From Gammaproteobacteria bacterium (lineage in GTDB: Bacteria > Pseudomonadota > Gammaproteobacteria > GCA-001735895): a stretch of DNA of 64,000 nucleotides. The notes beneath the pieces are model-generated. The model was not told the DNA's origin. It ran no database searches and worked only from the letters and a program-made list of their open reading frames with translations. The stretch covers positions 160,001 through 224,000 of the forward strand of contig JBNKUM010000085.1 in assembly GCA_050298595.1 (NCBI GenBank), read 5' to 3'. Shown here one piece after another: positions 3,879-7,228 of this stretch. A program made the position numbers and the translations under genes. Position 1 is the stretch's first letter, and each line of letters starts with the position of its first letter.

Positions 3879-4592
3879 ATGGAATGGTATACTGAAATTG
3901 ATCTTTATTGTGAACGAATTGATCCAGGTTTTTGGGCAGAGCCTTTAAATGCTATTACAAATATTGCTTTCATAGTTGCATCTTTTTGGGCCTGGCATAC
4001 GGCATATAAGCTCGGAAAGTTAGATATCACAATAAAATTACTTTGTATTATGGCTGCAAGTATTGGCATTGGTTCGTTTCTATTTCATACCTATGCAAAC
4101 TTATGGTCTTATTTTGCTGATGTGATTCCTATTTGGAGTTTTGTCGCCTTATATGTGGTGGTCTTAATAATTAGAACATCCGCTAAATCACCATTACGAG
4201 TCGATGGAATTGCAGCTGGTATTATAGCTATTATTGGCGTTGTATGGATTATAGGATCAGGCAGTGCCACCCAAACTAAAGCATCCCCTGATGTGCTAAA
4301 TGGATCTGAACAGTATGCTCCAGCCTTAATTGCTTTATATTTCTTTGCATTCATGAGTGTTCGTAAGAAAAATCCAATTAGACTATGGATTGTAAGTGCA
4401 GCAATGATTTTTACATTATCGTTAATTGCGCGCACAGTAGATTTACATTTATGCGAAACATTTCCTCACGGCACACACTTTTATTGGCATCTATTAGATG
4501 GGTTAATGGTTGGGCTTTTATTACAGGGGCTTATTCGAATTGAAAGGAAAGAAACGAACCTCAAATATGATCGTGTAACAGGAGGGCTCTAA
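3879..4592 (+). CDS. Gene cassette 3: ceramidase-domain (CREST superfamily) membrane protein
   Basis: YCER...WAEPLNAITN, GSFLFH, GTHFYWH motifs; about seven TM segments; AT-rich relative to core genes. Confidence 0.85.
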   Translation: MEWYTEIDLYCERIDPGFWAEPLNAITNIAFIVASFWAWHTAYKLGKLDITIKLLCIMAASIGIGSFLFHTYANLWSYFADVIPIWSFVALYVVVLIIRTSAKSPLRVDGIAAGIIAIIGVVWIIGSGSATQTKASPDVLNGSEQYAPALIALYFFAFMSVRKKNPIRLWIVSAAMIFTLSLIARTVDLHLCETFPHGTHFYWHLLDGLMVGLLLQGLIRIERKETNLKYDRVTGGL

Positions 4593-4633
4593 TGGTCTGT
4601 CCCCACAACACCCTGAATACGGGTCCACACACG
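4592..4633 (-). mobile_element. Short remnant of a group IIC-attC intron 3' end (degenerate domain V)
   Basis: Minus strand cgtgtgtggacccgtattcagggtgttgtgggg...AT|TAGAG resembles 6720-6750; junction lies at CTCTA|A, the R'' position after the cassette 3 stop. Confidence 0.55.
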
Positions 4634-4695
4634 ACTGAGGGGATTCAGGAAGTAGAGCGAAGCAAGATGCCTGAGCCGAGGAAGCCAGAACCGAG
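4630..4695 (-). repeat. Copy of the ~48-bp unit plus outer left half
   Basis: Minus strand ctcggttctggcttcc-tcggctcaggcatcttgcttcgctctacttcc...gtcg. Confidence 0.75.
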
Positions 4696-4785
4696 GGTGT
4701 TTCCCAAAGATGTTAAAGCAAGCTAAAGAAAATCAAACACAGAATATTCTAATATTAGAGTAATTTGTGACCCCGGATTGGCGCT

Positions 4786-4869
4786 TGCCATCCCTGACAA
4801 TAAGGGCGATAAAAAACCTCACTCTTCAGTGCTGATTTTTGATTAAACTTTTTTGATGCCCGAACTTGC
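4786..4869 (+). repeat. Direct repeat of the tail of the large structured repeat (2342-2423)
   Basis: tgccatccctg.caataagggcgat.aaaacctcac...ctgatttttgattaaa...gcccgaacttgc in both. Confidence 0.9.
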
Positions 4870-4969
4870 CATTCCTGACATCCTACGTATGTCTTTTTAA
4901 TGCACGTTAAGAGCTCTCAATATAATTCAGCTGATACCGCACACCTCCCATCAATGTGAAAACTTTTGT

Positions 4970-5001
4970 CGTAGGTCGGATAAGCAAAGCGCCATCCGAC
5001 A
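4970..5001 (+). repeat. GTAG-type REP
   Basis: cGTAG-GTCGGAT-aagcaaagcgcc-ATCCGAC-a, enterobacterial-style REP. Confidence 0.85.
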
Positions 5002-5041
5002 TAAACGATACAAGCACATTACCAAACTAAAAGTACGTCAA

Positions 5042-5068
5042 TGTTGGAAGGCGTCGTTCCTCCTTTTC
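5042..5068 (-). repeat. GTAG-type REP split by the IS (remainder at 6489-6497)
   Basis: Joining 5042-5068 to 6489-6497 gives, on the minus strand, cGTAG-GTTGGAA-aaggaggaacgacgcc-TTCCAAC-a. Confidence 0.85.
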
Positions 5069-5147
5069 CAATGACATGGACTCCTCCCCACTAAAGCGGT
5101 GATCCGTTAAAGTGAGAGGTCAACGAAACCAAAACAGGAGCCATGCC

Positions 5148-6177
5148 ATGAAAAATGATACAACAATTTGCATCGATTTATCGAAAGAGGTTTTTCAAGT
5201 AGCCGTATTCAACCGAGGAGGTAAAACCCTCATCAATAAAGCGATGTCATGCAAAAAAATGGTGAAAACCATCCACGAATACCCTGGCGCAAAAATCTAC
5301 ATGGAAGCATGCGGTTCAGCGCATTATTGGGGTCGATATTTTGTCGGGAAGGGATTTGAGGTAGGCCTGATCCCTCCTCATATTGCAGCCAGGTACCGTA
5401 CAGGAAATAAGAGTGACAAAAATGATGTGTTAGCGATCTTCGAAGCGAGTAAAAACCCAAAAATCCACTGTGTCCCCATCAGGACTGTGGAGCAGCAGGA
5501 TATTGCCTTGCTGCATAAACAGCGAGAAGGCTTCAAAAAGGAGCGTAATCAGGTGGTTAACCGGATCAGAAGTTTTTGCTCGGGAGTACGGTGTTCATTT
5601 CGCCATTGGAATCAAGCCTCTTTTAAGGCAGGTTCCTGAGGCTTTAGAGGATGCGGAAAACGAGCTCAGTGTGATGGCTCGGGAAATACTCTCAGAACTG
5701 CTCGTTCATCTCAGAGAGCTCATCTAACGGCTTGACAGTATGAGCCACACAATAGAGACCTATGCAAGAACGATAGAACCTTGCCGGCGATTGGTTATGC
5801 TGCCAGGTATATCCTGGCTGATCGCTAGTATGCTATATGCAAAATTTGGCGATTGTCATGCCTTTCAACGAGGGCGAGACACCAGCGCGAGTATAGGAAT
5901 CGTACACGCCCATTCAGAAAGCGGGGGGAAGATCAAGATCGGCAGCATCACAAAGCGAGGGGACATTTACCTTCGAAGTCTTGTGGTGAATGGCGCTCGA
6001 TCCGTGGTGAGTCATATCCAGGAGAAAGCCGATGGCTTAAGCTGCTGGATCAGGAAGTTGCTTGCGACAAAGAAATTTAACCAGGTCGTCATCGCGGTGG
6101 CCAACAAAGTGATCAGGATGGCTTGTGCCATGCTGAAAAGTGGCGATGAATACCGCCAGCCTGTCACCCAGGCATAA
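5148..6177 (+). pseudogene. IS110-family DEDD recombinase/transposase, disrupted
   Basis: IDLSK, MEACGSAHYWGR, KSDKND, ESGGK, ITKRGD.YLR motifs; frameshift in the T-run near 5573-5577 and in-frame TAA at 5725-5727. Confidence 0.92.
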
Positions 6178-6234
6178 CGGTATTCTTTAGCCTGTGTTTA
6201 ACGATAACAGTACCTATCATGTAGTTAGCTAATG

Positions 6235-6410
6235 AAGTAACGGATCATTATAGCTGGTAGCAGACCAGGCAAACCCTGAGTAGGTTGAAGGCCCTTTGAG
6301 GCCTCTTTTCCAATAAGGAGTTTGGTCTTCACGGCAAATAGCCGTACAGGTCTGGAGTAGCTCTCCATAACAAAGACCGAATATACGACAGCTAACACAG
6401 CTTATAAGAG
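6235..6410 (+). ncRNA. Putative bridge RNA / seekRNA of the IS1111-group element (ends approximate)
   Basis: Internal loop with GTAGGTTG (6280-6287) and CTTTTCCAA (6305-6313) matching the two strands of the reconstructed target CTTTTCCAACCTAC; closed by aggcc/ggcct and agacca/tggtct stems. Confidence 0.82.
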
Positions 6411-6463
6411 CGTTGCAACACAATGCCAACGAAGTGGAGTACTTGTAAGTTTTCTCAATAGTA

Positions 6464-6488
6464 TTGCAAAACAGGAGGAGTCCATATA
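6464..6488 (+). promoter_or_regulatory. -35 half of the circle-junction promoter of the IS
   Basis: TTGCAA at 6464-6469; joining the right end to the left end yields TA|CAAT exactly 17 bp downstream. Confidence 0.75.
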
Positions 6489-6536
6489 CAACCTACGATT
6501 CCGGGTTACGGGTTTACAGGTTATAGAAGGCAGCTG

Positions 6537-6783
6537 ACTGGTGGAAACAGAAGTCCTACCACCAACGCCGGTTTGAACAATGCACATTTCGAAAAGACAA
6601 GTCTCATATCCATGCGAAAGCTATGGTGCAAGATTCACCATCCGGCTACGGCCCGATAGACACTTGATATGAATTCGATTTACCCGATGAAGTATCTCAG
6701 TTAATAACTGGTCAGGCACCGTATACGGACCCGTATCTACGGTGTTGTGGCAAGGGGCTACTTGAGTAGCTCCCTATCCCGAT
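6537..6783 (+). mobile_element. 3' remnant of a group IIC-attC intron (IEP C-terminus, domains V and VI)
   Basis: Frame 6549-6659 reads RSPTTNAGLNNAHFEKTSLISMRKLWCKIHHPATAR*; DV gcaccgtatacggacccgtatctacggtgt (6716-6745); DVI ggggctacttgagtagctccctatcccgat ending AT|TAGCT, antisense to the cassette at its R'' box. Confidence 0.85.
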
Positions 6784-6789
6784 TAGCTT

Positions 6790-7122
6790 TTATCCTTTTA
6801 CGCCAAGCTCAAGAATATGACAAAAGATTTTTCCATTTCCATAGAAATCCTTTGGCTCTACCTTAAGATATACATCTTTTCCAGCTGCGTAAGCGCTCAA
6901 TAGTGTTGATATTTTCCCCTTTTCTCCTGAATCTTTTTCATCAACATATGCCCATGCGGGACCATCAGGGCAGTAACTCATGGATGCCATACCATATACT
7001 CTAAAGTAAAGGTTGTTACCACTAGATACAAACACTTGATTGATCTTAAACCAGCCTGTTGACTCAGCTGCATATGAAATACTAGATAATAATATCATTA
7101 CCGTTACTAATAAAACTCTCAT
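6790..7122 (-). CDS. Gene cassette B: small secreted protein of unknown function
   Basis: Signal peptide (SYA-A), two Cys, ISTLLSAYAAGKDVYL helix-strand; AGGAG RBS; begins after GTTAGTT core. Confidence 0.8.
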   Translation of the reverse strand: MRVLLVTVMILLSSISYAAESTGWFKINQVFVSSGNNLYFRVYGMASMSYCPDGPAWAYVDEKDSGEKGKISTLLSAYAAGKDVYLKVEPKDFYGNGKIFCHILELGVKG

Positions 7123-7144
7123 ACTTCCTACTCCTTTAAATTTA

Positions 7145-7228
7145 AACTAACGCTGCAAACACCGGAGGCAAAGCCATAGCGACGTAGGAGCGACAGCTTT
7201 TCCTTCCGTGTGATTTGCTTTGTTATAA
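7145..7228 (-). other. attC site (84 bp)
   Basis: Minus strand R'' TTATAAC-aaagcaaatcacacggaagg ... cctccggtgtttgcagc-GTTAGTT; R'' complements GTTATAA at the cassette start. Confidence 0.9.

Follow-up and report, generated by a model that had tools for sequence, protein, structure and literature searches.

Positions 5069-6488 of a 64,000-nt stretch of the gammaproteobacterial contig JBNKUM010000085.1 (this whole stretch is called the window; its source genome, of 5.49 Mb, is called G000) were read as an insertion sequence (IS) of the IS1111 group, within the IS110 family, that is decayed and has a single copy; it lies, in one orientation and at one position, in a genus-wide repeat that resembles a repetitive extragenic palindrome (REP-like repeat). 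The 3′ non-coding region of this element was read as encoding a guide RNA, of the type called seekRNA or bridge RNA, for the element's own REP-like target. We consider it very probable that the two readings hold together. An earlier note on the window had proposed the boundaries of the element and the 14-mer CTTTTC-CAA-CCTAC that appears when 5069-6488 is removed, and all of these coordinates hold.

The IS could be delimited to 5069-6488, apart from an ambiguity of three bases (CAA), because an uninterrupted paralogue of the site, the only one in the genome with the intact 14-mer in the same repeat, is present on contig C56. Taking out 5069-6488 brings CTTTTC (5063-5068) against CAACCTAC (6489-6496). 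The parts of the element and of the interrupted site are as follows.

5040..5068, + strand: left half of the interrupted REP-like repeat; paralogues in the genome and the genus read on as ...CTTTTCCAACCTAC...
5063-5068, + strand: left target CTTTTC, the final 6 bases of the left half of the repeat
5069..6488, + strand: IS1111-family insertion sequence, 1420 bp (empty-site comparison, DNA search of its own genome, scan for subterminal inverted repeats)
5069..5075, + strand: left terminal extension CAATGAC, 7 bp (direct reading); its initial CA(A) is the core common to the target
5076..5087, + strand: left subterminal inverted repeat (sTIR) ATGGACTCCTCC, a perfect 12-bp inverted repeat with 6474-6485
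6474..6485, + strand: right sTIR GGAGGAGTCCAT, partner of 5076-5087
6486..6488, + strand: right terminal extension ATA, 3 bp (direct reading, empty-site paralogue)
6489..6515, + strand: right half of the REP-like repeat, with the core plus the right target as CAACCTAC (6489-6496)

The insertion shows no target duplication, and its extensions are asymmetric (7 bp left and 3 bp right). Non-coding DNA covers 79 nt upstream of the gene for the transposase (tnp) and 311 nt downstream of it (6178-6488). In the parts of Siddiquee et al. (PMC11187229) used here, IS1111 is told from IS110 by the length of its sTIRs (11-13 bp), by its 7/3 extensions, by non-coding DNA downstream of the gene and by a transposase of 330-350 aa. 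The DNA search recovered one full copy of the IS in its own genome.

The downstream non-coding region contains a predicted target-binding module with two guide segments.

6261..6328, + strand: predicted target-binding module, the core of a short seekRNA (folds; covariation in 40 elements)
~6261-6269 with 6320-6328, + strand: outer stem of the target module (folds)
6275-6277 / 6316-6318, + strand: closing stem CCU/AGG (folds, covariation)
6280..6287, + strand: 5′ guide GTAGGTTG, the reverse complement of 6489-6496 (CAACCTAC), which would pair with the top strand of the core and right target
6289..6304, + strand: hairpin of 5 bp between the guides, AGGCC/GGCCU, 6289-6293 with 6300-6304 (folds, covariation)
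6305..6313, + strand: 3′ guide CTTTTCCAA, equal to 5063-5068 plus CAA and complementary to the bottom strand

Because the final A of 6305-6313 is conserved in relatives, it may not be a guide base. The guide spacing of the window element is 17 nt, the two guides overlap in the target, and the complement of the top strand stands 5′ of the complement of the bottom strand. This is the published layout of seekRNAs and bridge RNAs. IS1111 members have the top-strand match first and two matches that overlap in the target, and their non-coding region gives rise to a seekRNA that is 70-100 nt long and also has a longer form, of ~150-170 nt (PMC11187229); for 93% of IS1111 entries, the right end was predicted by Durrant et al. 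to contain a bridge RNA (PMC11208160). The guides, the separating hairpin and the closing outer stem that had been claimed for this region are all present in the sequence, and folding of the region, proposed as a check, recovered both the hairpin and the outer stem.

A rival explanation is that the two matches arose by chance, or that they are a piece of the repeat captured within the IS, with no guide RNA involved. The target is indeed repeated, its left 9-mer being found 61 times and its right 8-mer 79 times in the genome. Against this, the two halves lie in opposite orientation and are split by a covarying hairpin, unlike the build of the repeat. When the non-coding region was shuffled 5000 times with its dinucleotides preserved, the observed T+B score of 17 was never reached (93 of the 5000 yielded some 6-mer pair), and the motif GTAGGTTG-N5-45-CTTTTCCA has a single occurrence in the 5.49-Mb genome, which is the one described here. 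Relatives with unrelated targets also have their own flanks in the same columns. Chance or capture therefore deserves hardly any credence, and the matches are treated below as guides.

The relatives were surveyed at 160 loci with 33-68% identity, among the matches listed (relatives of 55-90% are possibly missing from this sample). A transposase frame was found at 157 of the 160, and 112 elements, the window element included, had an sTIR of at least 10 bp and both flanks. The canonical set comprised 94 elements (93 relatives and the window element) that measured 1300-1620 bp and whose inverted repeat began with ATG[GA]; their ends were placed by the 7/3 rule. Guides were scored as exact matches of at least 6+6 nt, with the reverse complement of the right flank 5′ of the end of the left flank plus 2-3 bases. 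By this measure, 48 of the 94 elements carried cognate guides in the same order, mostly with a spacing of 16-18 nt. When flanks were permuted among elements (200 rounds), guides were found in 1.6 elements on average and never in more than 5. Covariation of guides with flanks in homologues, which the earlier note had named as a check, was thus observed, and its claim of a natural guide-target pair is borne out by the layout together with this covariation.

The closest relatives with flanks, among the matches listed, were L014 (55% identity), L094 (51%) and L173 (52%, in a Pseudoalteromonas donghaensis replicon). In all three, the guide columns of the window element hold sequence that is cognate to their own, different flanks. 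The guide column of L014, TGGGAACG, matches its flank CGTTCCCA at 8/8 positions; that of L173, GAGTTGCG, matches CGTAACTC at 7/8 with one G-T wobble, and on the left side ACCTCG matches the left flank of L173. Judged by their sequences, the difference between these three elements and the window element is natural retargeting on a common scaffold. L173 (NZ_CP032091.1, 540-541 kb) lies inside a tandem array of ~14-bp units (CGTAACTCGCACTT-like), and its guides match the unit.

The structure of the target module was compared in 40 of the 48 guide-matched elements (gap 13-21, unique sequence), a set picked for guide matches and not for structure. Over the hairpin and closing stem, 85.6% of cells paired, compared with 66.1% in shuffles, and 64 cells were changed on both sides, compared with 18.4 in shuffles. 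Neither value was reached in any of 500 shuffles; these counts are not probabilities, because the 40 sequences are mutually related. When partners were slid along the alignment, pairing fell to 24-47% (at most 46.9%). The hairpin pairs at columns 28/43 and 30/42 had changed on both sides in 20/40 and 25/40 sequences, respectively, and RNAalifold recovered the hairpin independently.

Downstream of the target module, candidate donor guides and part of a junction promoter were found (in what follows, a slash within an element end marks the junction).

6331..6347, + strand: hairpin ACGGC-AAAUA-GCCGU, the 3′ arm of which (6341-6345) lies in the column of the right-donor guide of the family
6349..6378, + strand: conserved stem-loop GGUCU..GGAG-uagc-CUCC..AGACC between the donor guides (fold; kept in L014 and L094)
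6381..6386, + strand: left-donor guide ATATAC, consisting of AT, the right extension ATA and the first base of the left extension
6464..6469, + strand: -35-like TTGCAA of the junction promoter (direct reading)

The left-donor hexamer was cognate in 88 of 94 elements within the last 20-120 nt of the non-coding region, compared with 13 of 1034 for non-cognate classes; examples are ATGTAC for GTA/C, ATCTAT for CTA/T and ATACAT for ACA/T. The weaker suggestion that ATATAC belongs to a donor guide has therefore gained family-wide covariation. About 40 nt upstream of the hexamer, a right-donor segment complements left-extension bases 3-7 plus AT. Its 7-mer was exact in 40/88 elements (28/792 for non-cognate classes), and many of the others differ by U-G wobble. 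The G001 remnant, a truncated copy in a related genome that is described below, has the same GCCGUAC at the right-donor position. Position 5074, in the left end, is A in the window and G in contigs of the runs X5 and X8; with this G (ATGGC), the pairing of GCCGU would consist of four Watson-Crick pairs and one wobble. According to Durrant et al. (PMC11208160, as far as used here), donor-binding nucleotides of IS1111 members often lie in a multi-loop.

Seventeen nt past TTGCAA, TA (6487-6488) and CAAT (5069-5072) make up a -10 that would exist in the circle only. A -10-like hexamer across the junction was found in 84 of the 94 elements, 70 of which also had a -35; in its linear form, the element showed no sigma-70-like promoter on the + strand.

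Several observations weigh against the guide-RNA reading. Folding energies of the region were mildly better than those of shuffles (z -2.2 and -2.0). A search of 4500-7200 against all Rfam families with permissive filters gave one chance match to a long non-coding RNA (E 0.33) and no matching family, and no RNA runs with the window stretch were listed. The segment GCCGU (6341-6345) pairs with the left end ATGAC of the window copy by three Watson-Crick pairs and one wobble out of five, and an exact complement of the left end (GTCATTG or ATGTCAT) was absent from the non-coding region, where only TCATT at 6245-6249, outside the homologous position, was found. In the survey, 46 of 94 elements failed the exact-match criterion (mismatched sites or misplaced ends are possible), and the 40 sequences used for structure had been selected by their guide matches. 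One full copy was found in G000 and only one truncated copy in the 61 related genomes searched, so few insertions bear on the target specificity of this exact IS. The tables for the X5 and X8 contigs do not list every difference, which limits what they show about the identity of the flanks.

We infer RNA production, protein binding and guided recombination from the published mechanism of the family. In an active relative, excision would join the ends, and the circle junction promoter TTGCAA-17 nt-TA/CAAT would form. Transcription of both the transposase gene and the guide RNA would start from this promoter, with read-through of tnp and the non-coding region yielding the guide. One RNA would carry the 5′ guide (6280-6287), the 3′ guide (6305-6312/13), the right-donor position (6341-6345) and the left-donor guide (6381-6386). 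In its target loop, the 5′ guide would bind the top strand and the 3′ guide the bottom strand of CTTTTC-CA-ACCTAC; the donor guides would pair with ...ATATA/CAATGGC..., and strands would be exchanged at the common core. The RNA-protein complex would in this way recombine the circle junction with CTTTTC/CAACCTAC.

Among described systems (the papers are cited for the parts used here), ISPa11 of Pseudomonas aeruginosa is likewise an IS1111-type element at a fixed position in a GTAG-type REP (PMC11187229; PMC13604230), with a seekRNA from the 3′ non-coding region and the top-strand match 5′ of the bottom-strand match (PMC11187229). It differs in its REP family and target sequence, and the window element is a pseudogene known from sequence alone. 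ISEc11 and ISXne4 share the IS1111 architecture and have a short (82 nt) and a long (154 nt) seekRNA form, and their close relatives show natural retargeting, in which the two guide segments are exchanged while the scaffold is conserved (PMC11187229), as seen here between the window element and L014, L094 and L173. The target of ISEc11, in contrast, is short and linear and is not a repeat. IS621, of the IS110 group, also has an RNA in which a target loop and a donor loop each pair with the two strands of DNA, and it likewise targets REPs (PMC11208160), but its bridge RNA lies in the 5′ left end, its guide order is reversed and its sTIRs are 2-3 bp. The donor guides of the window element sit in a multi-stem region instead of a single internal loop like that of IS621, and the same holds for many IS1111 members (PMC11208160). 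ISPpu9 and MITEPpu9 (named after miniature inverted-repeat transposable elements, MITEs) of P. putida also target REPs and include orphan copies of a non-coding module with a 3′ tnp fragment (PMC12288879), which the G001 remnant resembles. ISPpu9 differs in being of IS110 type, in that ssr9 is, in the part of the report used here, not its bridge RNA, and in that the G001 remnant is without a left-end box. The IS4321/IS5075-like elements of plasmids belong to the same family but are distant relatives only: thousands of plasmid records match P0002, the nearest intact homologue of the window transposase, at <60%, and the enterobacterial matches listed stand at 39-41%. These elements target the terminal repeats of Tn21-type transposons.

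The interrupted sequence is a member of an extragenic repeat of ~100 bp. Copies with at most 2 mismatches to the left-arm 17-mer numbered 11 in G000 and 14, 12, 19, 5 and 4 in members of the genus. Thirty repeat copies were read, from six members of the genus, and 10 of them had the exact 14-mer, 9 of these 10 being in other genomes; the guide thus matches the consensus of the repeat family. The earlier note had called the site a GTAG REP. A genus-wide extragenic repeat with a GTAG start on its minus strand (GTAGGTTGG) is indeed present, but a stable palindrome and an adjoining RAYT (REP-associated tyrosine transposase) gene were not found. The hairpin of the repeat has an imperfect stem, GTTGGAAGG/CC(TT)TTCCAAC, with a DNA fold of -7.2 kcal/mol (z 0.13; 111 of 200 shuffles were as stable). 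None of the 26 matches to PF01797 (Y1 transposase) in G000 adjoined a listed repeat copy by comparison of coordinates. Since the stem folds no better than shuffles and no RAYT adjoins it, we use the label REP-like. Internal stops occur in about half of the 26 PF01797 matches, so G000 abounds in IS200/RAYT-like genes that have decayed. Just upstream of the target repeat, at 4971-5000, is another palindrome of GTAGG type but of different sequence (GTAGGTCGGATAAG...CATCCGAC), with very high contig depth in X8; because of it the site resembles a REP cluster. Another short repeat, with GTCCATATAGGC beside ..cttccgcgtcctgctcacgc.., was seen in G000 at C28:70212 and C56:50331-50500, in tandem at C56. 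At L226 (G012:C10:1451), the left arm of the repeat is followed after ..TCCTT by unrelated sequence, possibly another insertion in the repeat family.

The DNA search of the 61 related genomes recovered only the G001 remnant, which is truncated at its 5′ side (L012 1501-1829; G001:C69:13079-13407). Of tnp it retains no more than the final ~20 nt; the non-coding region is complete, at 97% identity, and the right end is present. It lies in the same repeat, ending ...GTCTATATA/CAACCTACcattccgggttacggg; it has no left end. Contigs of other samples showed 93-97% identity over the whole element. Those of X5 and X8 are window-like through the right flank to about 6508-6514 and unlike it thereafter, with some differences omitted from the tables, which points to other loci for these copies. 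The G001 remnant and the X5 and X8 contigs have the same right flank as the window before they diverge, and the data support use of the same repeat target by related copies in other samples. The proposed check that other genomic copies sit in the same target was thus answered in part, by these right flanks; in its own genome, the element has one full copy. Single-protein scans of genome contigs and viral contigs returned no close relative, and a class-wide protein search of 400 genomes returned nothing above 43% identity besides the window itself. Right ends of other IS1111-like elements (..GGGAGGCGTCCATATA / ..GGAGTGGGTCCATATA) occur in G000 near contig ends, at C14:59080, C39:322 and C53:743, so this genome contains further, more distant family members that are incompletely assembled.

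The transposase gene of the window copy is a pseudogene with the following features. P0002 (342 aa) comes from a metagenome, and the nearest intact relatives, among the matches listed, are in metagenomes only, at 88% identity or less.

5148..6177, + strand: DEDD transposase pseudogene, ~342 codons on read-through
5574..5578, + strand: T5 run with a +1 frameshift; P0002 aligns with 5148-5582 in one frame and with 5572-6174 in the next
5725..5727, + strand: in-frame TAA stop; X5, X6 and X8 have A at 5725, which gives AAA
5905..5919, + strand: conserved C-terminal motif with an invariant Pro changed to His (5905-5907) and an invariant Gly changed to Glu (5917-5919)

PF01548 (DEDD, the RuvC-like N-terminal domain) matched 5148-5636 (E 2.2e-11; 44.2 bits, cut-off 29), and PF02371 (Transposase_20, C-terminal) matched 5740-6174 (E 6.5e-14; 52.5 bits, cut-off 21.3). 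Identity to P0002 was 90% over residues 1-145 and 89% over residues 142-342, in separate frames. P0002 itself matched NCBIfam NF033542, 'IS110 family RNA-guided transposase', with 251 bits (cut-off 140), and the homologue lengths of 341-342 aa are within the IS1111 range of 330-350 aa. Alignment with P0002 located both the frameshift near 5575 and the TAA at 5725 that had been claimed before. In stretches that span the T5 run, the X5, X6 and X8 contigs each lack one letter relative to the window.

Four columns that were invariant in 46/46 homologues (alignment A1) are changed in the window copy (A12S, G142S, P253H and G257E); among columns conserved at 90% or more, 7 of 109 differ. P253H and G257E fall within the conserved motif G-L-x-P-x4-S/T-G, which reads G-I-V-H-A-H-S-E-S-G in the window: the S-G is kept, but the Pro that is invariant in the homologues is replaced, and so is a neighbouring invariant Gly. 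X5, X6 and X8 have the consensus letters at 5181, 5571, 5906 (A>C) and 5918 (A>G). A Logan contig of the probable source run, X1, is identical to the window over 5042-6596; as it reproduces this segment, the lesions are not the artefact of one assembler, although the contig may share the same reads. The lesions (a frameshift, a stop, four substitutions of invariant residues and a poorer left end) indicate that the window copy is dead and cannot act on its own. Revival by repair of the frameshift and the stop, as the earlier note envisaged, is not supported, since such repair would leave the four invariant-residue changes and the A at 5074 in place.

A decayed gene could still belong to a mobile copy if an intact relative acted in trans on its ends and guide RNA, by analogy with ISPpu9 and its MITE-type ssr9 module. 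Consistent with this, conservation is higher in the non-coding region than in the gene: contigs of X5 had 0 differences from the window over 6167-6320 (154 nt) and 23 over 5042-5783 (742 nt), so the guide region is less diverged than the gene, and the G001 remnant keeps it at 97%. Modular circles have also been reported for ISPpu9 (PMC12288879, in the part used here). However, no intact close relative was found in the genome, where only two pseudogene pieces match at E ≤ 1e-60, the change at 5074 weakens donor pairing, and the G001 remnant has no left end. We give such non-autonomous mobility little chance. Retention of the non-coding region for a host or regulatory function apart from transposition would also fit its outlasting the gene in two genomes, but these are two cases only, and both may be young, 97% being near the 93-97% seen over the whole element; this explanation has very little to recommend it. 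Our preferred reading remains that of a dead element with the guide RNA sequence of its family. The neighbours of the IS are HemG, an RND-type (resistance-nodulation-division) transporter, under family cut-offs, and a TetR-type regulator, and no acquired resistance gene was found among them.

In three of about 12 repeat copies in G000, no IS is present, but CAACCTA is immediately preceded by ATATA, the five final bases of the IS.

C47:52986 in G000: footprint-like copy (locus L207); left target kept, 6 extra bases
C70:390 in G000: footprint-like copy (locus L209); 9 bases replaced
C94:149548 and 149562 in G000: footprint-like copy (locus L211); TTTTC changed to ATATA in register, unit duplicated

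Each of these joints can be written at a TCC that is present in the left arm of the repeat and in ...GAGTCC/ATATA. In run X8, five contigs join the left arm of the repeat to 6481/6482, and four others are of empty-site type. For other IS1111 members, in two unrelated genomes, one footprint (L253), ...cacttttccATATA plus the right flank, was found with two true junctions in G223, and one candidate footprint (L265) with 11 junctions in G435. No footprint form in the context of the repeat was found in other genomes of the genus, and none was found in five further genomes, where IS junctions made up 5/6 (G083), 3/3 (G434), 11/14 (G100), 1/2 (G306) and 1/2 (G233) of the hits. Two routes to these copies were rejected: segregation of a 5-base heteroduplex fits the in-register C94 copy only, one of four readable sequences, and slippage across the base of the sTIR stem would leave CAATGACATA, which was not seen. 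The footprint-like copies may be microhomology deletions, recombinase products or something else.

The mechanism has been known since 2024, and the element is new but dead; it is a clear yet ordinary example. Because the mechanism was established in 2024 and the copy is dead, it holds no surprise for a specialist. It provides a clean natural guide-target pair between an IS1111 element and a repeat family of an environmental genus of Pseudomonadota, and one more retargeted scaffold besides L014, L094 and L173. The left-donor rule for this branch (AT, the 3-bp right extension and the first base of the left extension) could aid in annotating or choosing IS1111 systems; the rule or the element is possibly already contained in Supplementary Table 5 of PMC11208160 or in the target logos of PMC11187229.

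Only the repeat copies of footprint-like form might lead to something new. We tentatively suggest, as a possibility that we still doubt, that loss of IS1111 elements can leave a fixed 5-base footprint, the left-donor bases ATATA, beside the core and right target, with the joint always at a (T)CC common to the flank and the end of the right inverted repeat, so that the left target is rewritten and the site becomes unrecognisable. A transposase-dependent footprint, if true, would be unreported in the part of the literature that was covered. Were the loss that leaves the footprint to depend on the transposase, excision could in this way immunise targets, and their past occupancy would stay readable in the sequence.

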